Shown: positions 1 through 60,130, numbered from the stretch's first letter. The stretch is 64,000 nt of DNA from a virus (IMGVR_UViG_3300021387_000074), one strand, 5' to 3'. Notes: generated from the sequence alone by a model not told the origin. A program made the numbers and translations.

Positions 1-442
1 TTATTCTGACACAATTGCTCAATTAGCAGAAGAAAATGAAGCTTTAAGAAGAGAACAGGAAATCATGGAAGGCGCTCAAACTCTATCAGAACTTTTGGCT
101 CCTTACTCTGATAAGACACAAAAGTTGGTTCTTTCTTTGATTAAAGAAGGAAGCCCAGAAGAGGTAACAGAACAGTTCTACACAATTATGGAATCATTGC
201 AGGATGTTTTCGGCGAAGCTGAAGACAACAATGAAGACGATGACGACACAGATGATGAAGACAAAGGTTCTAAAAAATCTGGCGACGACGATGATGGTGA
301 TGACGAAGACGACGATGACGAAGACGAAGACGACTTAGACGAAGACTTCATTAATGAAGGATTTGACGGAGACGACGACGAAGACGACGGAGACGTTCTT
401 GGTTCTGTAAAAAACATTATGAAACAATATTCAATAAGATAA
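1..442 (+). CDS. Prohead core/scaffold protein (gp22-like), 5'-truncated by window edge
   Basis: Frame is open from position 2 upstream of the ORF-track start at 65; helical segment then a long D/E tract; lies directly before the major capsid gene. Confidence 0.65.
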   Translation, partial: YSDTIAQLAEENEALRREQEIMEGAQTLSELLAPYSDKTQKLVLSLIKEGSPEEVTEQFYTIMESLQDVFGEAEDNNEDDDDTDDEDKGSKKSGDDDDGDDEDDDDEDEDDLDEDFINEGFDGDDDEDDGDVLGSVKNIMKQYSIR

Positions 443-443
443 T
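436..443 (+). promoter_or_regulatory. Putative phage late promoter variant AAGATAAT
   Basis: One-mismatch variant of the recurring AAGTTAAT motif, followed by SD AGGAGG and the capsid ATG. Confidence 0.55.
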
Positions 444-459
444 TTAGGAGGATTTTTGA

Positions 460-1974
460 ATGTTAAATACTAACTTTATCGAAAAAAATCAGTATGAAGA
501 ACAGCTTAACAATAGATGGGATTGGATTACTGAAGACATCGACGATGCAGAAACAAAACTTAACACTCAGTTAGTTCTTGAAAACTCGTATCGTTATATG
601 ATTACTGAGGGATTAATCCCTAGATCTTGGCTCGAGAACAACGTTCTTTCAGAAGACGTTCTCGAAGAAGCTCCACAGATGAGAGGCGCAGTTGGTGATT
701 ATGTTATCCCTAAGGTAATGTTCCCAATCATCAGACGTGTTATGCCAGAACTTATCGCTAACAAATTGATTTCAGTTCAGCCAATTCAGCAGCCAACTGG
801 TGTAATCTACTACATCAACTATGACTACTCTACAACAAAGGGCGAAATCAAAGCTGGCGACGAATTCTCTGCTAACCCACAGCAGACAACACCTGCTTTC
901 GCTACTTGGTATTCAAGTGAAAAAATCGGACCATTCGTTGCAACTGTTGACAGTGCTAACGTTGGTGCAGACGCAAACGTTAAATTTGTTGGTGGAAAGG
1001 CTATTACAGACTTCCTCGGAACAGATGTAACAAAATATAAGATTAAACGTTTCGAAGTTTACAATACAACTACTGGTAAAGCTATTGCTACTGTTTACGG
1101 TGCAGCAGCTGGTGCAGCAGCAAATGTAACTTACGACGGAGTAAAGGGTGAATTCACTGTTAAAGTTCCAGCTTCAGCTATGGCTAGCGGAAAAGACAAT
1201 GCATTCAAGGCTTTCTTGGTTTATGATCAGGAAGGATCAAGCTTCATTCCAGAGATGGAATTCCACATCGACCACATGAACGTTGAGACAACTGAACGTA
1301 AATTGAAGGTTAGATGGACAAAAGAAGCTGAACAGGATATGATGGCTTACCACAAGATCGACGTAGAACAGGAACTTGTAAAAGTTGCAGCAGTTCAGAC
1401 AAACTACGAAATCGACCGTGAAGTATTGAGATTCATCGATGACCACATCATCACTGAACTTTCTCAGAGCCACAACTGGACAGACGACGCAGCAACAACT
1501 GGAAACAATACTCAGGGTAACTACCTTGATAGACATCGTTGCTTGGCACAGAAGCTTTACGCAGCTTCTACAAAGGTTGCAACATTCAACCACCTTGGAC
1601 CATGTGATTGGGCTGTTTCTTCTCCAAAGATTGCAGCAGTTCTTCAGATGCTCCCAGATTGGAAAGCAGGAGAAATTGCTAATGGTAAGACAACTTACTA
1701 CAACGCAGGTTCTCTCGGAAACGGTTCTTTGGCTATCTATGTAGATCCAAACAGAACTGGTGGACAGGAAGACGAACTTACACTTGGTTACAAGTCTAAG
1801 GATTCAACATACGGAGCTGGTGTAGTTTACTCACCATATGCTAACTGGATGTCAGGAACAGTTGTTAATCCAGACAACTTCAACAACATCCGTGGTTTCT
1901 TCAACAGATATGCTTTGAGCATGGCACCAAGAGGACAGTACAACTACGCTCGTGTAACAATCAACAACATCTAA
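460..1974 (+). CDS. Major capsid protein (T4 gp23-like)
   Basis: Motifs PIIRRVMPELIANKLISVQPIQQPTGVIYY, RKLKVRWTKEAEQD, EIDREVL, GYKSKDSTYGAGVVYSPY typical of gp23; SD AGGAGG. Confidence 0.95.
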   Translation: MLNTNFIEKNQYEEQLNNRWDWITEDIDDAETKLNTQLVLENSYRYMITEGLIPRSWLENNVLSEDVLEEAPQMRGAVGDYVIPKVMFPIIRRVMPELIANKLISVQPIQQPTGVIYYINYDYSTTKGEIKAGDEFSANPQQTTPAFATWYSSEKIGPFVATVDSANVGADANVKFVGGKAITDFLGTDVTKYKIKRFEVYNTTTGKAIATVYGAAAGAAANVTYDGVKGEFTVKVPASAMASGKDNAFKAFLVYDQEGSSFIPEMEFHIDHMNVETTERKLKVRWTKEAEQDMMAYHKIDVEQELVKVAAVQTNYEIDREVLRFIDDHIITELSQSHNWTDDAATTGNNTQGNYLDRHRCLAQKLYAASTKVATFNHLGPCDWAVSSPKIAAVLQMLPDWKAGEIANGKTTYYNAGSLGNGSLAIYVDPNRTGGQEDELTLGYKSKDSTYGAGVVYSPYANWMSGTVVNPDNFNNIRGFFNRYALSMAPRGQYNYARVTINNI

Positions 1975-1995
1975 TTTTAGAAATTAGTTGATTTA

Positions 1996-2027
1996 AACCC
2001 CGTTCGAAAGAGCGGGGTTATTTTTTT
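1996..2027 (+). terminator. Intrinsic terminator of capsid gene
   Basis: AACCCCGTTC-GAAA-GAGCGGGGTT stem followed by a T7 run. Confidence 0.9.
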
Positions 2028-2034
2028 GACAAAT

Positions 2035-2065
2035 AAAAAAGGCTACCAAATTTGGTAGCCTTTTT
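2035..2065. terminator. Bidirectional terminator downstream of flagellin
   Basis: A6-GGCTACCAAA/TTTGGTAGCC-T5. Confidence 0.85.
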
Positions 2066-2110
2066 ACTTTTCTCCTTTCTATGGCGAGAACCCCTCCGAA
2101 GTCGCCGTTT

Positions 2111-2959
2111 CTATTTTAACAACGCTAATACATTTTGTGATTGTGAGTTTGCTTGACTAAGCATAGCGACAGAAGCCTGAGAAAGAACCTGCTGCTTTGT
2201 ATATTCTACCATTTCAGTAGCCATATCAGCATCACGAATTCTTGATTCTGCAGCTTGTGTGTTTTCAGCTGCTACATTAATTCCTTTCTGTGCCATCTCC
2301 ATTCTGTTCTGATAAGCACCAAGATCTGCTCTCTGCTTATTAACATTTTTCAAAGCTTCATCAAGTGTGGCAATTGTTGTATTTGCCTCATCAGGTGATG
2401 AAATAGAAATCTGATTGTCTTCACCCTGGATACCTTTCAGCCCAAGAGCAGAAGCAGTCATTGTTCCTATATATGCTCTGATATTCTGATCTGCGTTTGC
2501 ACCAACCTGGAATTGCATTACAGTATCAGAATCTTTTGAGAATCTTCCAGTTAATAAATTCATTCCGTTAAACTGTGCTGAAGAAGCAATTCTGTCAACT
2601 TCTGCTACAAGCTGAGAAACTTCTACCTGAATCTGCATTCTATCTTCATCTGAGTATACACCATTTGAAGCCTGAACTGCAAGTTCACGAATTCTCTGAA
2701 GAACATCAGTTGTTTCTGCTAGATAACCTTCTGCTACCTGAACAAAAGAAACAGCATCTCCAATGTTTCTTGAAGCCTGATTAAGACCACGAATTTGAGA
2801 TCTCATCTTTTCAGATACAGCCAAGCCAGATGCATCATCACCTGCTTTGTTAATTCTTTCACCACTTGAAAGCTTTGCCATTGAATTCTGTAAGTTTGCC
2901 GCATTAATTCCTTCTTGGCGACTAGCAAACAAACTTGCCATATTGTGATTTATTACCAT
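2111..2959 (-). CDS. flaB: Flagellin, spirochaete FlaB-type filament core protein
   Basis: MVINHN start, [70 protein letters not shown]; 282 aa with only D0/D1 domains; VEVSQL and DRIAS motifs as in Treponema FlaB. Confidence 0.97.
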
Positions 2960-2963
2960 ATAC

Positions 2964-2979
2964 TACCCCTCCTTGGGTA
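2964..2979 (-). promoter_or_regulatory. CsrA-type hairpin containing the flagellin Shine-Dalgarno
   Basis: Minus strand TACCC-AAGGAG-GGGTA: 5-bp stem with ANGGAN hexaloop, 4 nt before the ATG. Confidence 0.65.
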
Positions 2980-2986
2980 TAAAAAA

Positions 2987-3014
2987 TTATCGGCAGATTT
3001 CTCTGCCGACTTTA
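2987..3014 (-). promoter_or_regulatory. Sigma28 (FliA/SigD)-type promoter of flagellin
   Basis: Minus strand TAAA-N16-GCCGATAA; exact -35 and -10 consensus; overlaps inverted repeat TCGGCAGA/TCTGCCGA (2990-3009). Confidence 0.8.
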
Positions 3015-3015
3015 A

Positions 3016-3405
3016 TTATTCGTCCCAATCAAAATCTTCTTTGGCTTCGGACGCTCTCGAAGCTGCAGTTGCAACTCCTTTTCTTGTGCTTTCTACTGGC
3101 CCAGCAATTTCACTTGCTTTTACAATTGCGTTTTTTTGGATTCTTCTCTTGTTAGTAACAGTGTCTTTTACTAGACCTGAATCATATATAAAATAACCGT
3201 TATCTAATTCGATGTAGTTTCCTTTCATTAAAACAACATAATCATCGTCTGATATTTCTTGCCCAGTAGTTATTGCACCTACTTGCCTAACCTTTGCTAA
3301 TCCTTTATTTCCGTTTGCGCCTTTTATGGCTTTTACAGTATAAGAATCAGCAAAAAGAAGACTTGTGAATAATGCTAAAAAAGCAATCACAAAAAGTTTT
3401 TTCAT
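3016..3405 (-). CDS. Small exported protein with signal peptide
   Basis: MKKLFVIAFLALFTSLLFA-DS type I signal peptide; C-terminal TAASRASEA plus acidic tail; SD AGAGGAG. Confidence 0.75.
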   Translation of the reverse strand: MKKLFVIAFLALFTSLLFADSYTVKAIKGANGNKGLAKVRQVGAITTGQEISDDDYVVLMKGNYIELDNGYFIYDSGLVKDTVTNKRRIQKNAIVKASEIAGPVESTRKGVATAASRASEAKEDFDWDE

Positions 3406-3425
3406 TTCGAATCTCCTCTTGTGTA

Positions 3426-3433
3426 ATTAACTT
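3426..3433 (-). promoter_or_regulatory. Putative late promoter AAGTTAAT
   Basis: Exact motif 20 nt upstream of the 3405 start. Confidence 0.6.
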
Positions 3434-3435
3434 TT

Positions 3436-3972
3436 TTAAATCAAATCCTCTCTTCCAATAAATGTCAAAGCCTTTGCACGATTTTTGTGAATTATATCAT
3501 AGTTAGGATATGACAACTTGCTTGTTCCGCGGGTATGAGAATAAATCTCTGGGAAGAAATAGCATCTTGATCTAATATAGAAGAAATTCCACAAATCTAA
3601 ATCCTTGTTTTTTATGGCTCTTCCATCCTTTCCTTCTTTTCTTGCGATTGCATCCTTCAATGCCTCTGCAATACCAACGATTGGAATATCGTCATCCTTA
3701 TTTGATTTATAAACAGAACCGATGAAAACTTCTCCATTTTCACCTTTAATTGCCACCAATGTTCCGCGTGGCTTCGTTCTTTCAAGCTGAAGTCTTCCGT
3801 TTCCAACTTCCTTTCCAATGAACCCGTCGCGAATTCTCAAAGAAATGAAACCGTTGTTTCCATGTTCCTTTCTAAATTCATCAACGAACTTCTGTGCTTC
3901 ATCTCGTGCTTTATTACGAGCTTCTCTTTTCTCTGCTGCTCTCTTCTTAGCAGCTTCTTCAAATTTATTCAT
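3436..3972 (-). CDS. Hypothetical protein
   Basis: 178-aa ORF with SD AAAGGAG, in a tightly packed operon. Confidence 0.8.
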   Translation of the reverse strand: MNKFEEAAKKRAAEKREARNKARDEAQKFVDEFRKEHGNNGFISLRIRDGFIGKEVGNGRLQLERTKPRGTLVAIKGENGEVFIGSVYKSNKDDDIPIVGIAEALKDAIARKEGKDGRAIKNKDLDLWNFFYIRSRCYFFPEIYSHTRGTSKLSYPNYDIIHKNRAKALTFIGREDLI

Positions 3973-3985
3973 CTTTTTCTCCTTT

Positions 3986-4360
3986 CTATTTTAATGTTAA
4001 ATGATTAGTCCATTCGTAAGTGCAATATACTTGTTTGGCCCACTCATACTTCTTTTCTTCTGCCATATTTTCGGGGCAGTAATGCATTGACGTAACTTCC
4101 ATAGCGGATTCAAGAGCTTTTCTTCTTACTAAAACATTATTAATATGTTTACTTTCAAAGAACTTATCAATCTTTAATGAAGTGTTTAAGGTTCTTTTAC
4201 CAAGTCCATCCATATGTAAGATTGCCGAAGCAAAACTCGGATCATTATTTAGTTCTTCAACCGCAGAAATAGCATCTTTTAAAAGACTTAAGTTATCAGC
4301 GTCCGTATAAACAATTCCGAGCCTTTTCATTTTTTCTTCAAGTTCTTTAATCTCACTCAT
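3986..4360 (-). CDS. Hypothetical protein
   Basis: 124-aa ORF abutting the radical SAM stop codon. Confidence 0.75.
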   Translation of the reverse strand: MSEIKELEEKMKRLGIVYTDADNLSLLKDAISAVEELNNDPSFASAILHMDGLGKRTLNTSLKIDKFFESKHINNVLVRRKALESAMEVTSMHYCPENMAEEKKYEWAKQVYCTYEWTNHLTLK

Positions 4361-4361
4361 A

Positions 4362-5681
4362 CTAAAAATTATAAACCATTACTGCATTTTTGTCAACACT
4401 TCCAACAGTTGATTGAAATCCTTCTTCGAATTTTTCCTCAGCATAAGATTTTCCAGATACACATGGTCTTGGCGCCCATTTAGACTCACATCTCTTTCCT
4501 TGCCTGAAATGGTCAAATTGTTCAACCCCAAGATTTTCTGATTGACAAAGATTTTGCAGCATCAAGACTTCTCCAACTGGAGGATTTTCGCCCCCACAGA
4601 GTTCTTCGTAGAATTTTAAAGTTTCTCTAGCTGCATCCCAAAAATTCCACTTTCTATGTTGATGGATTAATGGGTGCCTATCAAAATCTTGAAATTCTTC
4701 GTAAAATAGCATATCAGGGCCAATCATTGAATATGCGGCTTTATCACCATTCTTATATGTTCCCATACCAAATGTTGAATAGCCTTGTTCATGTTCCCAG
4801 GCCATATCTGACAATGAATTAATATAAACATTAAAATCATCAATAATTGGTGATTTTGGCTTATAAAGCCTTGTAGCGGCAACATTAAAATTGCCATTCA
4901 AAGTTCCTTCTGGGTTTATATAACCTGGAATATAAGTTCTTACCGCTCTGCTTATTCTTCTATAAACGTCTGCAGCATTAAAATTATCCAAGTTGTATTT
5001 ATTTTGATATAATACAGAGATAGTTATTTCATCTGGAAAGAAGCAATACTTATTTGTAAGTTTAAAAAGATCTTCCGTTAAAACATCATCCCAACCTTGT
5101 TTAGTTGTCCAATATGTTATAAGATCTATAGCGATATTCATATCTAAATCTCTAGCGTATTGCATACACTGAAAAGCGTTTTGGTAATCGGGGATTAATC
5201 TGCCTTGTTCTATTAGAATATCATTATCAAAAGTCTGAAAACAAAATATCAATGTAGTAAAATTATGACTTTTTAATACGTTGATAAACTCCTTAGTTAT
5301 TAAAGCAGGATGAAGCTCTATTATTTTTCTAGGAGCTTTTTCTAAATATTCAGGCATAGATTTTAGGTATTTATCAAAGTCTTCTGGCGACAAATAATTA
5401 GGGGTTCCGCCGCCAAAATTAACCATTTCTATTGCCTGATTTTTTAGAATACTGTCATACTCTTTGAAGAGATGTGGCATATAGTCAAAATAGAATTTTT
5501 GAACTTCTTCTTCTGTATGATTGCTTTTTGGACAACCTTTATGCATACAGTAGCCACAATTGGCTTGTGTTTTACAGAATGGATTATGTAGATATACGAC
5601 CGTTGGTCTAACGTTTTTTTCCCACATTTTTCTATAACTAACGATGTCTACTACATTTCCACTAAATTCTAACATTGCCAC
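4362..5681 (-). CDS. HemN/HemW-like radical SAM protein
   Basis: YLHNPFCKTQANCGYC (CX5CX2C), FGGGTPNYL, ELHP, FQTFD, IAIDLI; start could be the ATG at 5675. Confidence 0.85.
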   Translation of the reverse strand: MAMLEFSGNVVDIVSYRKMWEKNVRPTVVYLHNPFCKTQANCGYCMHKGCPKSNHTEEEVQKFYFDYMPHLFKEYDSILKNQAIEMVNFGGGTPNYLSPEDFDKYLKSMPEYLEKAPRKIIELHPALITKEFINVLKSHNFTTLIFCFQTFDNDILIEQGRLIPDYQNAFQCMQYARDLDMNIAIDLITYWTTKQGWDDVLTEDLFKLTNKYCFFPDEITISVLYQNKYNLDNFNAADVYRRISRAVRTYIPGYINPEGTLNGNFNVAATRLYKPKSPIIDDFNVYINSLSDMAWEHEQGYSTFGMGTYKNGDKAAYSMIGPDMLFYEEFQDFDRHPLIHQHRKWNFWDAARETLKFYEELCGGENPPVGEVLMLQNLCQSENLGVEQFDHFRQGKRCESKWAPRPCVSGKSYAEEKFEEGFQSTVGSVDKNAVMVYNF

Positions 5682-6584: not shown

Positions 6585-6613
6585 ATTATACTAGAGCCAA
6601 TAATTTATGTCAA
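6585..6613 (-). promoter_or_regulatory. Consensus sigma70 (early) promoter
   Basis: Minus strand TTGACA-N17-TATAAT, exact consensus. Confidence 0.9.
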
Positions 6614-6619
6614 GTTAAT
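6612..6619 (+). promoter_or_regulatory. Putative late promoter AAGTTAAT
   Basis: Exact motif 16 nt before the ATG at 6636. Confidence 0.65.
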
Positions 6620-6635
6620 TATATTGGAGACTTAA

Positions 6636-9452
6636 ATGAAAAGTTTTAAAGATTTTGTTTTAACCGAAGATACAAACAAGCAAACATTCTTAGACAAATA
6701 TAAAGAAGACGCAGATAAGGCGATTAATGCCGTTAAACGCTTGCTCGCAAAAGCAAAAAAGGAAAACCTTAAAGATGTAGAAGACGCTTGTAATAATGTT
6801 CTAAATGCTGCTTCTGTTGTAACTGAAGATGACGAAGTAGACGGAAATAACGCTCTTGATACAGATACAGATACAGATACTACAGAAGAAAAAAGCCCAG
6901 AAGCAGAAGCTATTGAAAAGAAACTAAAAGAACTAGACGCTGTTGTTGCTAAACATGGCATTGATATCAATAAAATGTTTATGGACGCTTCTGAAATAGA
7001 GCAGGGTGATATCGCAGATCAGGTTATTACTTTTTTAAAAAAACTTGGTGCCGACAAAAATGTAATAATTGGTGCTAGTAATTCAATGCTAAAGTTCTTA
7101 AATAACGCCGACACAAACAAAGACAGAGTTTTTTCACCAGAAGAAATAAGAGAATTTGTTTCTGCAAAAGATAAAGCAAACTTGGCTGGCTCTGGAAAAG
7201 TAGACGAAACAGTTGCTAGAGTTTTACCATTTGTTTTATTTATTTTATGGGTAAACACAACAGCGCCAGATGTATTGCAGAAAGTAAGCGAAAAAACACA
7301 TGGTAGAGCACAAGGCGAAGGTGTTTCAGAAAACTTCAACTCTATAATTAAAGCTGTGTCAGACAAAAGACTGAAATTAGACATCAAAAACGAGCCATTT
7401 AAAATCTTAGGAAATAAATTTGTAAATGACATGCTTTCTGAAGACAAGTACAATGAGCTTGTAGATAAGTTGAATAACATAGCAAAAGAGATGAAAAAGC
7501 CTATCAAAAACCCTACTGAAAAGCCTACTTCACCAAGCAAGAATGAAACTAGCTCTCCAACAAACACTCAGTCTCAAGAAACTCCAAATAAGGCTAATGA
7601 AACAGAAACTCCTTCCAGTAATCAAGAAGAAACTTCTGAGACTCCTAAAACTTCTCCTGAAGGAGCTAATACCGAAGACGAAGAAGAAGTAAGAAACAGC
7701 ACTAAGGATTTAATTACAAGTCTTACAAGAGATTCAAAGAAAGAAGAAGTAAACGCTGCTATAGAAAAAGTATTCGGAACCGCCACAGATGCAAACGAAG
7801 ACAGTGATGCAAACAGAGGTACTGTATTTGCAAACTTAGTAGATGCTATAGAAAAAGCAAAGAAGAATAATCAATCTCTTTATGACGTTTCTCACACTAA
7901 AAAGAATGAAGACGAAGCTGAAGAAAAGCCAGAAGTACAAACAGAAGATTTCTTCTTTGATTGTGCAGATAACAAGCTTATAAATGAAACACTTGTTGGA
8001 AGAAAAATTGGTGCGGCTCTTGGTAGAGTAAATATAGGCAACAACGAGAGAAATACAAACTCTTGGAATAAATGTTTAATCGACCTTAGAAAGAAACAAG
8101 TTGCAACATTAAATAAAGCAAAAACAATTATGGCTAAAATGTTTGACAATATCAACTCTGTTTCTAAGAAAGGCAATCTTTTGGTAGACCTTAAAAAACT
8201 TGACTCTAACTATAAGTCAAGCATGACAGCCATTTTTATAGATTACAGAAAAGCAAACAGTTATAATGGCATTGGTGCTATGGCACACGACTTAAGAGTT
8301 GCTGGCTTAAAAGGTGCTAAAAAAGCAAAAGAGGCTGAAGAAAACTCAAAGTTTGGTCAAGAGTCTAAAATTATAAACCAGAACATAGAAAACAAAATTG
8401 AAAGCATAAACGCTCAGAGTTTGGACAAATATATCCAGGAAGATCTTAGAGATGTTTTTGCGTATGCTGTTTTAAATCAAAGCAATCCTATGGTTTTACA
8501 AGAGCCAGACGTTGACAGTGATACTGGAAAAATGACTGTTATAAAGTCAGCCTTTAATGCTGTAGCAAACAACAACGAAGTGTTTGGCGTTGGAAATGAA
8601 AGAGAACTTATGGTATTCCTTGGTAAGCTTTTGGAGAAATCTAAAGAAGATCAGGAAATTGGAAGATGGCTTGCTAACTATAAAGGTGTGTATGATAAAA
8701 AGAAGCTTATGAAACCAATCAGAAATGTAATTTTTGATCTTAACAAGGTTTCTGGTTCTATATCTAAGAAGTTATCTAATTCACCAGACCCTTATGCAGA
8801 TATTTGTTCTGCTCTTGGTTTAACACAAGAAAACTTGCACGAATGTGTTAAATCATTTAAGGAATATTATTTACTTACAGAACAATTATTTAAGAGAAAC
8901 CCTAAGCCACAGCAATCAGCTACATTCACTGATGAAGAGAAAAAATCTCTTGCAACATTGTGTTTGCTTGCAGCAGTTGGAAAGCCAAATGATCAAAAAC
9001 TTTCAGCTTTGAAGACACCTGCAGCATCAATTGTTTTAAGTAAAATAGGTAGGGATGAGGCAATTTCTCAACACTTAACTATAGATGACATAATCAAATC
9101 TGCTCAAAAGTTTGTTGAAGAAAATAGCGACAAGGTAAACAAGGCTGCTCAGGGACTTATGACTCTTATCAACAAAGAGCCACAACCACAACCACAGCCA
9201 ACAGAGCAACCAACAACACAACCACAGCAACAACAGCCTGCCGCTGGTCAAAATGGACAAACTAATGTAAACGACATATCGGCTCAAAACGACGACTCTG
9301 AAACTGGCGGAACAGATTATCACTATGCTGATGGTGAATCGGTTGTTACAACTCCACAAGCAACAGTAACAACTGGCGCGGTTGGCGGATACACAATCCC
9401 AGATAGGCTGACAAAACAACTAATAAGAAGAAGAATTAAATCATTTGTATAA
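6636..9452 (+). CDS. Large hypothetical protein, probable internal head protein
   Basis: N-terminus MKSFKDFVLTE resembles T4 capsid-targeting sequences; low-complexity P/T/E/S and P/Q linkers; late motif upstream. Confidence 0.6.
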   Translation: MKSFKDFVLTEDTNKQTFLDKYKEDADKAINAVKRLLAKAKKENLKDVEDACNNVLNAASVVTEDDEVDGNNALDTDTDTDTTEEKSPEAEAIEKKLKELDAVVAKHGIDINKMFMDASEIEQGDIADQVITFLKKLGADKNVIIGASNSMLKFLNNADTNKDRVFSPEEIREFVSAKDKANLAGSGKVDETVARVLPFVLFILWVNTTAPDVLQKVSEKTHGRAQGEGVSENFNSIIKAVSDKRLKLDIKNEPFKILGNKFVNDMLSEDKYNELVDKLNNIAKEMKKPIKNPTEKPTSPSKNETSSPTNTQSQETPNKANETETPSSNQEETSETPKTSPEGANTEDEEEVRNSTKDLITSLTRDSKKEEVNAAIEKVFGTATDANEDSDANRGTVFANLVDAIEKAKKNNQSLYDVSHTKKNEDEAEEKPEVQTEDFFFDCADNKLINETLVGRKIGAALGRVNIGNNERNTNSWNKCLIDLRKKQVATLNKAKTIMAKMFDNINSVSKKGNLLVDLKKLDSNYKSSMTAIFIDYRKANSYNGIGAMAHDLRVAGLKGAKKAKEAEENSKFGQESKIINQNIENKIESINAQSLDKYIQEDLRDVFAYAVLNQSNPMVLQEPDVDSDTGKMTVIKSAFNAVANNNEVFGVGNERELMVFLGKLLEKSKEDQEIGRWLANYKGVYDKKKLMKPIRNVIFDLNKVSGSISKKLSNSPDPYADICSALGLTQENLHECVKSFKEYYLLTEQLFKRNPKPQQSATFTDEEKKSLATLCLLAAVGKPNDQKLSALKTPAASIVLSKIGRDEAISQHLTIDDIIKSAQKFVEENSDKVNKAAQGLMTLINKEPQPQPQPTEQPTTQPQQQQPAAGQNGQTNVNDISAQNDDSETGGTDYHYADGESVVTTPQATVTTGAVGGYTIPDRLTKQLIRRRIKSFV

Positions 9453-19134: not shown

Positions 19135-19137
19135 ATA

Positions 19138-19145
19138 ATTAACTT
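19138..19145 (-). promoter_or_regulatory. Putative late promoter AAGTTAAT (leaderless)
   Basis: AAGTTAAT-TAT-ATG, no SD. Confidence 0.65.
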
Positions 19146-19849: not shown

Positions 19850-22384
19850 ATGAAAGTAATTAAAAGAGATGACAGAAGAGAAGAGTTTGATGAAGCAACC
19901 ATCTTCAAAGCAATCAAAAAAGCAAACAACAGTAAAGAATATCCTGTTGAAAAAGAGAAAAGGATTACGGACGACCAGATAATGGAAGTCGTAAAATGGG
20001 TAGTAAAAAAGATGCCAAAAGCTGTTGATGAAATTTCTGTAGAAGAAATTCAAGACTTGGTAGAAGACGGCTTGGTTCACAAAAATCACACAGAAGTGGT
20101 TCGTTCTTTCATTAAATACCGTGAAGAAAGAGCAAAGAAAAGATTCAAAAAATTTGCTGTAATTCAAGCAATGGAAGACAAATATTCTGGAAAGACTTGG
20201 GATAAGCAGAATGCAAACATTGATGGTTTGAGTTATGACGGTAAGGCTGGTGAAGCACACGGATTGCTTGACAAAGAGCTTGCACTTGACTATATGATCA
20301 CCGAAAAATTTGCAAAAAATCACAGAGATATGCTTGTTTATATCCACGATTTGGATAATTATAAAAAGGGAAAACCAAATTGTTTAAGCTTTCCAGCTGA
20401 TGATTATCGAGACCACGGAATGACAATTAAGATTCCAAAAGATATTCGTAGAGCAGGTTCTGTATCAACTGAATCTCAGTTATCACTTGTTGAACTTCAG
20501 TCGCAGTCAATGCCACAGTTCGGCGGTGTATCTTTAACACACTGGGATTTCACACTTGCTCCACTTGCAAATAAAGACTATTATAAATTCTATAAAAAGA
20601 ACTATGAAAGACTCACAGAAAAAGAATTGGATTATTCTTTCCAACCTTATTTATCTATAGATGATCCAGACTATGCAGCTTGCAATGCGAAAGCAGCTAA
20701 GTATGCAATGGAAGATTTGGAACAAGAAGTGCATCAAGCAATGGAAGGATTCTTGCACAATGCAAATACACTTCAGTCTAGAAGTGGAAATCAGCTTCCG
20801 TTTACTTCTGTAAATTATGGAACTGATACTTCTGCAGCAGGAAGACTTGTAACAACACAGTTGTTAAAGGCTTGGGAAGAAGGAATTGGAGAACTTGGTT
20901 TGTCTCCTATATTTCCTTGTGGTATTTTCCAATATAAGAAAGGAATTAATGATAAGCCTGGAACACCAAACTATGATCTTAAACAGAAAGCAATCTCTGT
21001 TCTTCCAAAGAGAGATTATCCAAACTTTGCAAACTGTGATTGGTCAGTTCAGAGAAAAGCATTTGAAAAATCTCAGGCAATCAAAGAGAAAGTTCTTTTA
21101 AGCCTTGACGAAAAAGATTTATACGAGTTGACAGGACTTGGCTCTGCAGTAACAAAGCAGCTCGGTTTCGTAGTTGATTTTGATGAAGGTGATTCTTACA
21201 AAATTACAATGAATGATACAGAACAGCCTTATGAAATGATGTCAACTATGGGTTGTAGAACTTATAATGGTTTTGATATAAACTTCACAGAAGACTACTT
21301 CAGAGAAGTAATCAGAAGAACTATCAACGACAAAACACCTCCAAGAGATATGCTTTGGTCAGGAATTCAGAAAGACGGACGTGGAAACATTGCCCCAGCT
21401 ACTGTAATTCTTCCAATGATTGCAATGAAAGCAAAACAGAAGGCTAAGGATAAGCCAGAGTATATAGTAGATTACTTCTTGGATTTACTTGAAAAGTATA
21501 TCGGTGATGCAAAAGATGAATTAATAGAAAGATTTAATTGGATTGCAGCACAGGGCCCTGAGTCTTCAACATTTGTATATGGAAACTGCACAATGAAAGG
21601 TTATGTTCCAGAAGAAGGAATTGTTTCCGCTTTGAAGCATGGAACACTTGCTATTGGACAGCTTGGTTTGGCTGAAACTCTTGAAATCCTTGTTGGATGT
21701 GATCAGTGTGATCCTAAAGGAATGGAAGTAGCAAAGAGAATCGAACAAAAATTCGTTGATAAATGTAATGAGTATAAAGAGCATTATAAGTTGAACTTTG
21801 GTGTTTACTACACACCAGCAGAGAATCTTTGTTTTACTGCTTTCAAAGCTTTCAAGAAGAAGTATGGTGATGTTGAAAATGTTACTTACTTTATAAATGA
21901 TAATGGTGAAAGAGTAGAAAAGTTGTTCTTTACAAACTCTATTCATGTTCCAGTATACAAGAAGATTTCACCTTTTGATAAGATTGATATCGAAAGTCAG
22001 CTGACTGGTTATTCTTCAGCAGGTTGTATTACTTATGTTGAAATTGGTGACGATGTAAAGCACAACCTTAAAGCAATTGAACAGATTATCGACTATGCTA
22101 TGAGTAAGGATATTCCTTACTTTGCATTAAACTTCCAGATTAACGAATGTACAAACTGTGGTAATACAGATAACCTTTCAGAAGATGTTGGCGTATGTCC
22201 AATTTGTGGAAGTCGCGATATAAACTGGCTTAGAAGAATCACTGGTTATTTAAACGGAAACTATCATACAAGTTTCAACGAAGGTAAACAGAGAGAAGTT
22301 GAGCTTAGACAAATACACACTAAATTTAAGAATATTAAGTTTGGTTGCAACTCTAACGTTGAATTGGAGAAATACGGAGTATAA
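19850..22384 (+). CDS. nrdD: Anaerobic ribonucleoside-triphosphate reductase (class III)
   Basis: N-terminal ATP cone (VIKRD), YIHDLD, NCL, MGCRT, GRGNI, YYTPAENLC, two CXXC, RRITGYL glycyl-radical motif. Confidence 0.97.
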   Translation: MKVIKRDDRREEFDEATIFKAIKKANNSKEYPVEKEKRITDDQIMEVVKWVVKKMPKAVDEISVEEIQDLVEDGLVHKNHTEVVRSFIKYREERAKKRFKKFAVIQAMEDKYSGKTWDKQNANIDGLSYDGKAGEAHGLLDKELALDYMITEKFAKNHRDMLVYIHDLDNYKKGKPNCLSFPADDYRDHGMTIKIPKDIRRAGSVSTESQLSLVELQSQSMPQFGGVSLTHWDFTLAPLANKDYYKFYKKNYERLTEKELDYSFQPYLSIDDPDYAACNAKAAKYAMEDLEQEVHQAMEGFLHNANTLQSRSGNQLPFTSVNYGTDTSAAGRLVTTQLLKAWEEGIGELGLSPIFPCGIFQYKKGINDKPGTPNYDLKQKAISVLPKRDYPNFANCDWSVQRKAFEKSQAIKEKVLLSLDEKDLYELTGLGSAVTKQLGFVVDFDEGDSYKITMNDTEQPYEMMSTMGCRTYNGFDINFTEDYFREVIRRTINDKTPPRDMLWSGIQKDGRGNIAPATVILPMIAMKAKQKAKDKPEYIVDYFLDLLEKYIGDAKDELIERFNWIAAQGPESSTFVYGNCTMKGYVPEEGIVSALKHGTLAIGQLGLAETLEILVGCDQCDPKGMEVAKRIEQKFVDKCNEYKEHYKLNFGVYYTPAENLCFTAFKAFKKKYGDVENVTYFINDNGERVEKLFFTNSIHVPVYKKISPFDKIDIESQLTGYSSAGCITYVEIGDDVKHNLKAIEQIIDYAMSKDIPYFALNFQINECTNCGNTDNLSEDVGVCPICGSRDINWLRRITGYLNGNYHTSFNEGKQREVELRQIHTKFKNIKFGCNSNVELEKYGV

Positions 22385-26600: not shown

Positions 26601-27544
26601 TCGACAAAAAAACAAGAGATAACGAATCCGCTCTGTCTAATGATGAAATAACACTAAGTCTTGGTGGACCAGAGTCAGCAGTTGATAATACTAAATTCTA
26701 CAAATCTATTTCTTCATTGCTTAATGAGTTCTGCAATGCTTGCCCACCATATCACGATTACGAACAAGAAGCAGAAAGAAAAACTGCTTACGCAAAGGGT
26801 AAAAAACAAGAAGACGTTGCAGAATATGTGGACGCTGACGGTAATAAACAAACACTTGATTTAAAAGGAGAAGCTCCTACTTATAATCTCACTTGGGATA
26901 TTATTGGAAAATATAAAGATGGTAAGGGAGAAATCCCAGTTGTCGGACTTCACTACAGAACCCCAATAAAACCAAAGATGATGAGAGTTTATAAATGGGG
27001 TACTGGTAATCCAAATATGCACGCCGTAAAGAGTGTTAATATAACAACAAGCTCTGAGTTTGCTTTATTGAGTTCCGCAGCCAATTCAACACTTGAACTT
27101 GGGATAGGTGGAAAGAAAGTTGCAATCAAAGGTGTTAACAGAATGTCAAACACTACTGGTGCAAATGAAGGAGAGATACAGGCAGAGTATGACAACTATA
27201 AATCTAATGAGGAGCCAGCTTATTTCAAGAATATAGTAAGTGAAAACGATAAATACAGTATAACAGATGCTGCGTTCCAGTCTATTAATAAAGGTACAAT
27301 AACTTTATTGGGCGATCCTTCTTTAAGGTTTGGAGGATATATCAACCCAATGACTTATCCAATTTACTTAGATATAGATTTACAGAACGAAGGTGTTACT
27401 TGGAAAGAGAACAGAGCAACAAAGAGCACATTGTCTGGCGTTTATGTTGTTTCTAAAATTACTCATTCTATAAATACCCAAGGATATGTAACAACTTTGG
27501 AAGTTATTAGATACCCTGGAGTGAATGAAGTTATTTCAGTCTAA
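23609..27544 (+). CDS. Baseplate hub protein (gp27-like) with large insertions
   Basis: C-terminal GTITLLGDPSL...SGVYVVSKITHSINTQGYVTTLEVIR typical of hub/late-control-D fold; lies in the tail module. Confidence 0.65.
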   Translation: MAEKSLADTIIDNYTYTDDWKNENSNYIGNGDWTIPARPKTFTTQFIDIDRYYNHYNVVSPRVEVEFRTGDSDESWTNLKQLVSDGGFVCEAVLENGVKKEVIQKNDVYTIDGKEVKVGDTVSGSKIVSINKVSSNTNNNNNYFVSATIEDTGYRTLQLELFDRTFTTIQAMLFEAIKHASGQQIEGAEKTSNSKTSFDLEFVKMPALTRNNIRIRYGYNDSVNTVVDKSYWSAAGLDHIGFYQEDGKYRWISREFNDKDKRQGQTNGNDKEIELDDKGNATSVAQQNISTDNALFYLNNQSTILGGFEEFYITNVQSTLTNTGIKYSITAVGSDALKLNGYKFVQKYANIIDKPKNVLASLMRCFNFSGNGSSAKAKDTNQTMIKLVWNDDKPLAAAKKILPTKDGYKAYSADEQKEELDKDKLVLAGYKQKLTVAQRLLGCLTSEQGDDYVAGSIIEQKKLYPDWKLTERMATTSKSYNSDLFNISKKSPLWFNCYAQVRGVIQNSWDIAKEAFFAYYLKNYGSSRISIKLDDGYDATTGVRKAVYNCDDTDVSLDGYTYPCTTNSNFFYSRIARAVLADTIADNVYNFEGASIVETINQHYLVKSQQLNKIEAVKEIFKTLQSYVKTNLVKAKGGKQYYIKLPISFINALNTDAAKKMARICFQQKSGGARLGNINGDGWTFFRPADDMFNNLPDAAGNGDRYSKDRESWANKLFYNLKEKEIKDEDIEKAIEKIDKTGSPEPQAEYSNMDVASVANLAVVFSYAIGVAGMTGNASDTNNTNVSIDTGAKLTIKLSDDGNTEQSKYGYVCFDFTRADETYNVSGKYKGGGEIKFIPNDEDESILVRKYLDDITKNENCDRFMINLNRCSQSFKNAYVLEEQAIEQDTNWAVLSTEEQLNKIKAEIDKFDFSSYKVELKNKSQMDSSFREIDSFNGVRSGKTISKELYDRITEYAPAGYDKDNSRRELKFEKDDFVNLAKDITSAISKVNDKYNELDKKTRDNESALSNDEITLSLGGPESAVDNTKFYKSISSLLNEFCNACPPYHDYEQEAERKTAYAKGKKQEDVAEYVDADGNKQTLDLKGEAPTYNLTWDIIGKYKDGKGEIPVVGLHYRTPIKPKMMRVYKWGTGNPNMHAVKSVNITTSSEFALLSSAANSTLELGIGGKKVAIKGVNRMSNTTGANEGEIQAEYDNYKSNEEPAYFKNIVSENDKYSITDAAFQSINKGTITLLGDPSLRFGGYINPMTYPIYLDIDLQNEGVTWKENRATKSTLSGVYVVSKITHSINTQGYVTTLEVIRYPGVNEVISV

Positions 27545-27550
27545 GTTAAT
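27543..27550 (+). promoter_or_regulatory. Putative late promoter AAGTTAAT
   Basis: Exact motif 12 nt before the 27563 ATG. Confidence 0.65.
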
Positions 27551-27562
27551 TATAGGTAAAAT

Positions 27563-30765: not shown

Positions 30766-30773
30766 AAGTTAAT
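30766..30773 (+). promoter_or_regulatory. Putative late promoter AAGTTAAT (leaderless)
   Basis: AAGTTAAT-TAT-ATG, no SD. Confidence 0.65.
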
Positions 30774-30776
30774 TAT

Positions 30777-37883: not shown

Positions 37884-37897
37884 TTTATACCTCTTTA

Positions 37898-37976
37898 ATT
37901 AACTTAGTGCACAACTTCCAAAAATTGACTATGTTTTTTAAAAGGACCTTCTTCGATTAAAAAGTCATAAGTTAAT
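37898..37976. promoter_or_regulatory. Divergent pair of late motifs (37898-37905 minus, 37969-37976 plus)
   Basis: Exact AAGTTAAT on each strand, each pointing at its adjacent gene. Confidence 0.7.
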
Positions 37977-40377: not shown

Positions 40378-40385
40378 AAGTTAAT
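40378..40385 (+). promoter_or_regulatory. Putative late promoter AAGTTAAT (leaderless)
   Basis: AAGTTAAT-AAGT-ATG directly after a terminator. Confidence 0.7.
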
Positions 40386-40389
40386 AAGT

Positions 40390-50803: not shown

Positions 50804-50847
50804 TCTTTGCTCCTAAAAGTTAATTATAAGATTTTTAGGAGCAAAGA
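50804..50847 (+). promoter_or_regulatory. RBS-sequestering hairpin with late motif AAGTTAAT at its loop
   Basis: Perfect 15-bp inverted repeat TCTTTGCTCCTAAAA / TTTTAGGAGCAAAGA covering SD AGGAG and the A of ATG; motif at 50817-50824. Confidence 0.85.
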
Positions 50848-60095: not shown

Positions 60096-60103
60096 AAGTT
60101 AAT
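60096..60103 (+). promoter_or_regulatory. Putative late promoter AAGTTAAT
   Basis: Exact motif after a terminator, before the 60131 ATG. Confidence 0.7.
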
Positions 60104-60130
60104 TAAAAGAAAGACTAGGAGTATCAATAA

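Follow-up and report, generated by a model that had tools for sequence, protein, structure and literature searches.

Large phages that probably infect gut Treponema carry a putative FlaB3-type flagellin gene under purifying selection

The viral DNA studied here (IMGVR_UViG_3300021387_000074; "the window" denotes the whole stretch of 64,000 nucleotides) encodes an intact flagellin that, judged from its sequence, is a spirochaete FlaB and that appears, by loop length and absence of the S152 site, to be of the FlaB3-type paralogue. The gene, phage flaB, is under purifying selection, with a dN/dS of about 0.09. We consider it fairly probable that the phage FlaB is exported and built into the host filament by way of host sigma-28 transcription, CsrA/FliW-tuned translation and glycosylation. 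A wider proposal is put forward tentatively: that large phages which infect gut spirochaetes and do not integrate have maintained a flagellin lineage of their own over a span roughly equal to that of the FlaB3 radiation among the gut Treponema sampled, that they wired it into the sigma-28 and CsrA-FliW circuits and built it into the periplasmic flagellum (some with a FlaA sheath of their own) to control swimming, and that flaB is common enough among them to be contested by homing endonucleases.

The phage protein resembles treponemal FlaB3

The initial annotation had named the product a spirochaete FlaB from its size and its VEVSQL and DRIAS motifs, and this identity held. Both motifs and the TLR5-recognised segment are present, the nearest relatives lie in Spirochaetota, and the protein consists of the D0/D1 core only, with no D2/D3 domains, its 282 residues falling within the spirochaete range of about 280-286. 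VEVSQL and DRIAS are reported as glycosylation motifs in T. denticola (PMC7431986). The reading frame (282 codons, no internal stops) matched both Pfam flagellin domains, Flagellin_N with E 5.8e-43 (146.7 bits, cut-off 26.6) and Flagellin_C with E 9e-26 (90.5 bits, cut-off 23), in agreement with its description as a full-length flagellin free of frameshifts.

The best PDB matches of phage FlaB were 9PIL and 10PP, T. denticola FlaB3 (TDE1475, 285 aa), with E of about 5e-115. FlaB3 is reported to form the thin unsheathed distal filament of T. denticola and to be marked by a shorter H3-S1 loop and by glycans on S115, S126, T137 and T167 with none on S152 (PMC13439194; bioRxiv 2026.02.04.703737). 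The loop at 140-150 has nine residues in the window protein and in all 133 database relatives, whereas it has 14 in 71 of 71 FlaB1-type proteins; column 147 is V in phage FlaB and S in all 71 FlaB1-type proteins, and there is no equivalent of S152. All 14 phage loci have the glycan acceptors S115, S126 and T137; T166, which corresponds to T. denticola T167, is present in 7/14 phage loci and 132/133 relatives, and the window protein has all four. The likeness to Treponema FlaB3 thus comprises the short loop, the missing S152 site, the acceptors and a moderately supported nesting of the phage proteins in trees given below. The phage protein also differs from host FlaB3 in being at most 78% identical to any sampled host gene, in 13 clade-diagnostic residues that set phage FlaB apart (G67-D68-A69 among them) and in a variable C-terminal tail.

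Residues that make filament contacts in FlaB are named in PMC13439194. The longitudinal contacts are Q88, R91, E92, D106 and E221 and the lateral contact is R219; all are invariant in the 14 phage loci and 133 database relatives except D106, which is kept in 13 of the 14 loci and in all 133 relatives. R240 is replaced in six of the 14 phage loci, these being distant alleles. N233, invariant in all groups, aligns with N237 of T. pallidum, a residue reported to be required for FliW binding (PMC12327847).

At seven positions of the TLR5 segment (Q88, R89, R91, E92, L93, V95 and Q96) all 20 aligned rows, phage and host, have the same residue. This does not favor the suggestion, made in the initial annotation, that the phage changes how the animal senses infected cells. 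That phage flagellin alters the way in which TLR5 or the inflammasome senses infected cells or their lysates seems to us very improbable, although the TLR5 segment is present and the variable C-terminal tail is a region that flagellin sensors read. The FliC of FRphi, an Enterobacter prophage, is reported to lower TLR5 activation (bioRxiv 2025.07.22.666180). However, the TLR5 segment and the nearby glycan sites of phage FlaB are the same as those of the hosts, the protein has no outer domains, unlike FRphi FliC, and its tail variation coincides with endonuclease insertion points.

Genomic setting and assembly

The window phage, a virus of the ruminant gut, is by its gene content (Gp23 capsid, S77 protease, tail, baseplate and gp46/47-like nuclease), assigned to the T4-like myophages. 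The 42 window proteins scanned included dUTPase, gp46/47-like SbcC/D nuclease subunits, endonuclease VII and NrdD/G, and the structural genes included those for S77 prohead protease, tail tube, and baseplate hub and wedge proteins; none of the 42 was a second flagellar protein. These results bear out the initial description of flaB as convergent with the major capsid gene and flanked on both sides by phage genes (dUTPase, SbcC/D, protease, tail tube and baseplate among them), and its terminator is matched by a predicted terminator-like hairpin on both strands. That hairpin is also kept in relatives L015, L017, L148, L169 and L170. Five terminator-like hairpins were found in 1900-3500 against 0.8 expected.

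Table 1 Position of phage flaB, its neighbors and predicted signals in the window
Feature	Position	Strand	Remarks
Major capsid protein, Gp23 family	460-1974	+	PF07068 E 2.4e-55, phrog_138 E 2.8e-55; convergent with flaB
Terminator-like hairpin, end of capsid transcript	1996-2019	+
Terminator-like hairpin, 13 pairs, bidirectional; predicted flaB transcript end	2036-2065	both
5-bp direct repeat	2076-2080	+	Partner copy 2998-3002; flanks joined here in flaB-less L017/L152
Phage flaB, intact putative FlaB3-type spirochaete core flagellin, 282 aa	2111-2959	-
C-terminal D0 tail, codons 244-282	2111-2230	-	Most variable part among close relatives; exchanged blockwise
5-bp hairpin, AAGGAG loop on Shine-Dalgarno, predicted CsrA-type site	2964-2979	-	From fold
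Exact sigma-28 (FliA) promoter consensus TAAA-N16-GCCGATAA	2987-3014	-	ATG 27 nt downstream
Hairpin plus T-run within promoter	2989-3010	-	Terminator-like for upstream gene
orf129, 129 aa, hydrophobic N-terminus	3016-3405	-	No family match
AAGTTAATTA motif, candidate phage promoter	3424-3433	-	Precedes orf129, not flaB, in window

The neighboring orf129 is optional beside flaB, being absent in L148, L015 and the contig from run X5. Its Atlas neighbors score 0.92-0.93 and their commonest phylum, on few records, is Spirochaetota. Relatives of orf129 with a conserved C-terminal end recur in other phages close to flaB or to the site that lacks it (L012:4275-4682 and L017:7332-7736).

The evidence that bridges the junctions consists of assembled contigs rather than raw reads, from runs X2-X5 of four studies (P1-P4), all of them DNA-type or unlabeled. 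Part of 1500-3500 was present in 20 of the 24 runs listed (11 studies, labeled gut, bovine gut or sheep gut, or coded). A single 11,094-bp contig of X2, from a study shared with the possible source run, covers 400-4500; two X3 contigs (1457-2227 and 2226-3694) together span both flaB junctions; an X4 contig (2768-4500) crosses the upstream junction; and one 27.7-kb X5 contig takes in the capsid gene, flaB and the sequence up to 4500. Both junctions, which the initial annotation had proposed for checking, are therefore bridged by contigs from four studies. A chimeric assembly is ruled out by these contigs and by the independent loci L148, L169 and L170.

Capsid-centered scans gave 23 viral and 39 metagenome loci, with duplicates between the collections kept. 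Among the eight distinct close relatives with enough flank, six have flaB at the same site (L015, L016=L150, L147, L148, L169 and L170, of which L147 may be the source), with alleles as different as 62% identity. The gene is missing in the other two, L017=L152 and L149 (1,076 bases of flank there), and was found at the capsid site in 0/29 more distant capsid loci. A flaB elsewhere, L004:6001-6845 of the 386-kb record G003, has a frameshift near codons 44-46 and is either a pseudogene or an assembly error; it and the fragments L013 and L207 were excluded from trees and counts.

Ancestry and selection

When each of the 338 T. bryantii-genus genomes was compared, the best host flagellin match was 78% identical to phage FlaB. 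The best 80 GTDB loci, which belong almost entirely to gut Treponema, gave a maximum of 77% (38 of 64 parts scanned). The near-identity to one host flaB that would betray a recent event was looked for and not found, and recent pickup from one host, or host contamination, is ruled out by this 78% maximum. The flaB alleles of phage contigs are 80-98% identical to that of the window, and identities of 86-99% were obtained with the 120 best-matching database proteins; those placed in trees (24 and 10) fall on the phage side. GenBank phages gave 12 matching records, all below 60% identity and none a close relative.

In a quick tree of 109 rows the phage clade of 24 rows (14 phage loci and 10 proteins of unknown context) had an SH-aLRT support of 98, and the FlaB3-type placement one of 82. 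A mixture-model tree of 40 rows, built without the last 42 residues, kept 10 of 12 phage rows together (91/92) and nested phage flaB among the FlaB3-type genes of gut Treponema with moderate supports (85/89, 86/90 and 81/85). L201/L203 and L011 fell outside the main phage clade, and as the long branches of L011, L015 and L202 are unsure we do not claim a single origin for all phage flagellins. The trees indicate that capture of flaB by phages is old and probably happened more than once. L011:6001-6813, in the complete 142-kb record G127, encodes a 270-aa flagellin that is 48% identical, has two GGA hairpins and adjoins a DNA polymerase III alpha gene in a different phage; it is probably an independent capture from another host group.

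Records of the phage clade reach 386 kb and include one complete 301-kb genome; the relatives L148, L153 and L161 are of 165, 223 and 198 kb. As a Gp23 match was found in only one of five large flaB-bearing records, flaB is probably common to different large-phage lineages.

Nei-Gojobori dN/dS was 0.066-0.18 in eight of nine phage pairs, with dS from 0.16 to 1.95, and 0.29 with the divergent L015 allele; five host flaB pairs gave 0.037-0.115. Neutral evolution, the other sign of a passing acquisition, is thus not what the phage pairs show. Together with the strongly supported phage clade and the presence of the gene in relatives, this upholds the stable capture proposed earlier. The GC3 of flaB, 0.234, is like that of three of four phage genes checked and, as it lies inside the host range of 0.22-0.67, it is not decisive on origin.

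Endonuclease genes and exchange of flaB ends

Endonuclease genes lie directly beside flaB in four distinct arrangements (L008-L010, L015/L016, L169 and L201). L015/L016 retain the promoter and 3' flank of the window, with 57 of the last 60 coding bases identical; an endonuclease gene of phrog_655 and, after it, a flaB of 62% identity lie between the two. A related endonuclease gene lies ahead of flaB in L008-L010 and there is none in L007; L201 has one as well, whereas in L169 the endonuclease gene directly follows flaB. The L169 and window genes match at 27-29 of every 30 nucleotides and then, after codon 250, at 13-15 of 30. The X5 contig has an insert of 800 letters within 2118-2154, near the 3' end of flaB; the insertion point (codon 269) is where the tails of P0045, P0124, P0133 and P0134 diverge.

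Among 83 close phage-clade proteins, 2137 of 3403 pairs were at 90-97% identity. The difference within these pairs is 0.18 for residues 244-282, 0.096 for residues 136-195 and 0.015-0.021 for the D1 helices; in host FlaB3-type pairs of equal relatedness (291 of 2775) the corresponding values are 0.075, 0.172 and 0.028-0.104. In six listed proteins a body of 97-99% identity carries a tail of 47-65%, and those exchanged tails that were tested are still recognized as Flagellin_C (66-68 bits, against 90.5 in the window). No endonuclease gene was matched beside flaB in 110 host flaB loci. Most phage alleles, including that of the window, also have none alongside. Free-standing endonucleases are reported to cut a neighboring conserved gene in genomes that lack them (PMC6083498; PMC10055350), and it is likely from these patterns that free-standing homing endonucleases cut the ends of flaB and drive the exchange of alleles and tails. 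In L017 the flanks are joined via the 5-bp repeat and half of the promoter hairpin is kept, which points to deletion and to flaB being an accessory gene.

Such findings could be read to mean that flaB brings no benefit and spreads solely through the endonucleases, since these genes adjoin it in four arrangements and one deletion and one frameshifted copy were observed. We find this scarcely credible: a dN/dS of about 0.09 at dS up to 1.95 largely refutes it, the swapped tails remain recognizable as Flagellin_C, and most alleles, the window's too, have no adjoining endonuclease gene.

The distribution of differences bears also on receptor or superinfection control, in which thin filaments of the FlaB3 type might extend out of the cell and act as phage receptors, which the phage allele would mask or replace. 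The initial annotation set receptor masking aside because spirochaete flagella are periplasmic. This was too quick, as higher FlaB3 is linked to protruding flagella, together with lower motility, in T. denticola (bioRxiv 2026.02.04.703737). Alleles as different as 62% identity also occupy one site in close relatives. Nevertheless, we regard the idea as improbable. The surface loops (136-195) vary less in the phage clade than in host FlaB3-type pairs (0.096 vs 0.172), existing filaments are not quickly replaced, and receptor control is reported as tested and not supported in the Enterobacter system (bioRxiv 2025.07.22.666180).

Control signals

Phage flaB is preceded by TAAA-N16-GCCGATAA, an exact copy of the sigma-28 promoter consensus that the initial annotation had not mentioned; this was the one match in the window (3014-2987), against 0.01 expected. 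The consensus is also present ahead of flaB in L148 and L170 and ahead of the endonuclease gene of L015/L016. A scan for the pattern gave eight loci, three of them known relatives and five unrelated chance matches. In T. denticola, TTAA and CCGATAA elements are reported for the sigma-28 promoter of flaB2, a sigma-70-like promoter for flaB1, and CsrA sites near the ribosome sites of both (PMC9481697).

The sigma-28 pattern was found in the leaders of 6/15 phage flaB genes, 51/70 host FlaB1-type genes, 1/79 host FlaB3-type genes and 1/34 other window genes, and a GGA loop in 12/15, 70/70, 11/79 and 4/34, respectively. The FlaB3-type gene of gut Treponema comes second in a pair and usually lacks its own promoter, whereas the phage gene stands alone with its own consensus and GGA hairpin. 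The leader counts therefore suggest that in the phage a FlaB3-type coding sequence has been placed under controls of the FlaB1 style. The strict pattern is nevertheless absent from nine of the 15 phage leaders, and since the window promoter overlaps a terminator-like hairpin, the latter could partly explain its conservation. The 27-nt promoter-to-start stretch of the phage has one hairpin, whereas 66/70 host FlaB1-type leaders have two or more; two of five pairs in the GGA hairpin showed two-sided change in four sequences, a weak signal. Note that in the gut Treponema FlaB1-type gene (L037-L116) the consensus, where found (51/70), lies about 165 nt upstream.

Contigs from RNA libraries of two studies (X16 and X18) contain phage-type flaB with flank and also the capsid gene, a weak hint that phage flaB is transcribed. 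The RNA-library pieces listed do not bridge the terminators, although DNA contigs do. RNA depth over flaB was left unused because it is inflated by host flagellin contigs, and missing cover over 8-12 kb was given no weight.

Flagellin and FliW form a textbook pair, and an alternative that we judge unlikely is that phage FlaB stays in the cytoplasm, where it would bind FliW and FliS and free CsrA to act against host flagellin or other GGA mRNAs, diverting resources to the phage. N233 is invariant as such a decoy would have it, FliW was found in 4/4 treponemal genomes tested and none of five phage records has a CsrA gene. In Borrelia, cytoplasmic FlaB is reported to sequester FliW with release of CsrA (PMC12327847). 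However, a mere sink would not need the lattice contacts, the glycan acceptors and the whole N-terminal half that are under purifying selection. The predicted CsrA-type hairpin of the flaB leader itself would limit output, the C-terminal D0 region that chaperones contact is the least conserved part, and sheath FlaA also occurs in relatives.

Companion genes, lifestyle and host

FlaA-family genes lie near flaB in L003, L007 and L012, and three of five flaB-bearing phage records gave a FlaA family match. Neither Pfam nor tblastn found FlaA in the 64-kb window, and a FlaA scan of viral contigs returned nothing beyond the query's own locus. CsrA was not found in any of five phage records. No TnpB-like family was present among the 42 window proteins or 112 neighbors of related loci; PF07282 (TnpB-like) occurs in two of five records, in G126 at a distance of at least 12 kb from flaB.

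No tyrosine integrase (PF00589) was found in the window or in 10/10 phage records, only three of which are at least 90% complete. The phage is thus likely lytic-type, as the initial annotation had it, with the qualification that G128, a relative with an 81-82% identical capsid protein, is classed as a provirus by IMG/VR; its 54 ORFs scanned contain no integrase and include phage-type replication genes. L254 (G394:C115), an 8.8-kb contig with a capsid of 59-63% identity, was assigned by binning to a genome from the T. bryantii genus. None of its ORFs is a host gene, and it may be a prophage fragment or a mis-binning.

These two records speak for lysogenic or carrier-state conversion, in which the phage would persist and its flagellin alter motility over generations, as with FRphi in Enterobacter. 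Control by sigma-28 and CsrA would also suit a living, growing host. We nonetheless give this reading little chance, given the lack of a tyrosine integrase in the ten records and among the G128 ORFs, the lack of host genes on the binned contig, and the lack of a TldR-like gene beside flaB.

The host is probably a gut or rumen Treponema, as relatedness and sample origins indicate. The earlier proposal of a Treponema host accordingly stands in the form of a Treponema-like host, but not as T. denticola. A CRISPR search with two 19.9-kb structural stretches against the 338 genomes found no spacer match: there were weak matches in 21 and 24 genomes, and none of 20 loci examined lay in a repeat array. 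Scoring only two candidates per genome, it was a weak search.

Proposed route into the host filament

In the mechanism that we favor, host sigma-28 polymerase would transcribe phage flaB, host CsrA and FliW would tune its translation as they do for host flagellins, and host glycosyltransferases would modify the product. The phage FlaB would then leave through the host flagellar secretion system and join the tip of a periplasmic filament, extending or repairing the thin unsheathed distal part. In this way motility would be sustained or altered in the infected cell as host gene expression falls off over the drawn-out infection by a large phage, and the FlaB1-style controls would raise the FlaB3-type share of the filament. 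Homing endonucleases, which likely cut flaB ends and drive swaps, would form a separate, selfish layer. Export and assembly are supported by the kept filament-contact, glycan-acceptor and FliW residues, by purifying selection and by FlaA in relatives.

Several observations weigh against this mechanism. Filaments are long-lived, which makes it doubtful what is gained within a single lytic cycle. At its site the gene can be dispensed with (two of eight close relatives and all 29 distant loci are without it), and the 386-kb record holds a frameshifted copy. The C-terminal D0 tail, on which filament and chaperone contacts depend, accepts swaps that leave as little as 47% identity, and R240 is replaced in six of 14 loci. 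FlaA is absent from the window, nine of 15 leaders lack the strict sigma-28 pattern, and the CRISPR search found no spacer that links the phage to a host.

The direction of the effect may also be a slowdown, given the link of higher FlaB3 to lower motility in T. denticola. Replacement of flaB2 by flaB3 is reported to have had no significant effect in that organism (PMC9481697). Of the three functions that the initial annotation had offered, motility remodeling or supply fits best and action on the regulatory circuit is a real rival, whereas altered sensing by the animal fared poorly.

Relation to known systems

The closest published case is FRphi, whose FliC-P is reported to enter the Enterobacter filament and change motility (bioRxiv 2025.07.22.666180). 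As in FRphi, the phage encodes a full flagellin related to that of the host, and the window locus may work in a like manner. However, FRphi is a temperate siphovirus of hosts with external flagella; its flagellin has enlarged outer domains, and host fliC is silenced by the RNA-guided TldR. The window phage is a large T4-like myophage with a periplasmic-type D0/D1 flagellin, no TldR alongside and no integrase found, and its relatives have co-captured sheath FlaA. As TldR is lacking next to flaB, the phage type differs and the flagellum is periplasmic, the window locus is not a member of the FRphi system.

By analogy, phage flaB would be the flagellar counterpart of cyanophage psbA, which together with F-CphI is reported as a host-derived accessory gene of a T4-like phage with a free-standing endonuclease alongside (PMC6083498). 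The differences are that flaB is structural, that the enzymes are of the phrog_655 HNH/NUMOD3 type, that no intron was seen and that cleavage is deduced from swaps. The FliS-flagellin-FliW-CsrA switch reported in Borrelia and Bacillus (PMC12327847; PMC9481697) is a third parallel: the phage keeps the FliW-binding Asn and a predicted GGA-loop hairpin at the ribosome site, although with one hairpin rather than the two or more of host FlaB1-type leaders.

In the literature searched (mostly open-access, main texts) no paper on a spirochaete-phage flagellin was found, and the published phage flagellins are solely those of temperate prophages in Enterobacter, where external flagella are remodeled with TldR. 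The accessible main text of bioRxiv 2025.07.22.666180 makes no mention of spirochaetes, Treponema or FliW.

If the favored mechanism is true, a virus with no detected integrase steers the organelle of motility and shape of a cell that it probably kills. Phage flaB genes would then also be natural alleles for testing how FlaB paralogues sort into thick and thin filaments, which is named as an open question in bioRxiv 2026.02.04.703737. They could be used as host markers for rumen phages that are uncultured, and in metagenomes and metatranscriptomes of the gut they may be counted by mistake as Treponema flagellin.

Other features of the window phage

The motif AAGTTAA(T/A)(T/A)A, a candidate phage late promoter, has nine matches in the window against 4.7 expected (4 of 100 shuffles were as high), located at 3424-3433, 6612-6621, 19136-19145, 27543-27552, 30766-30775, 37896-37905, 40378-40387, 50817-50826 and 60096-60105. 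They lie mostly 2-35 nt upstream of start codons on the same strand, and similar motifs also precede the endonuclease genes of L015 and L169.

The NrdD gene (19850-22384) gave two separate matches to its profile, one over 1-401 and one starting at about 418-508, which suggests an insert such as an intein. An ORF of 938 codons at 6636-9452, with no family match and a Gln/Pro-rich tail, lies on the plus strand amid a minus-strand block and is only 26% identical to its L148 counterpart, whereas neighboring genes are 96-98% identical. A gene with a weak radical-SAM match (4362-5681) is 47-66% identical among relatives, with flanking genes at 82-98%, and by this pattern appears to be another exchanged module. 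Relatives whose neighboring genes are at 96-98% identity share only 81% in the capsid protein, with a dN/dS of 0.18-0.19, values which indicate that the capsid diversifies faster than flaB.
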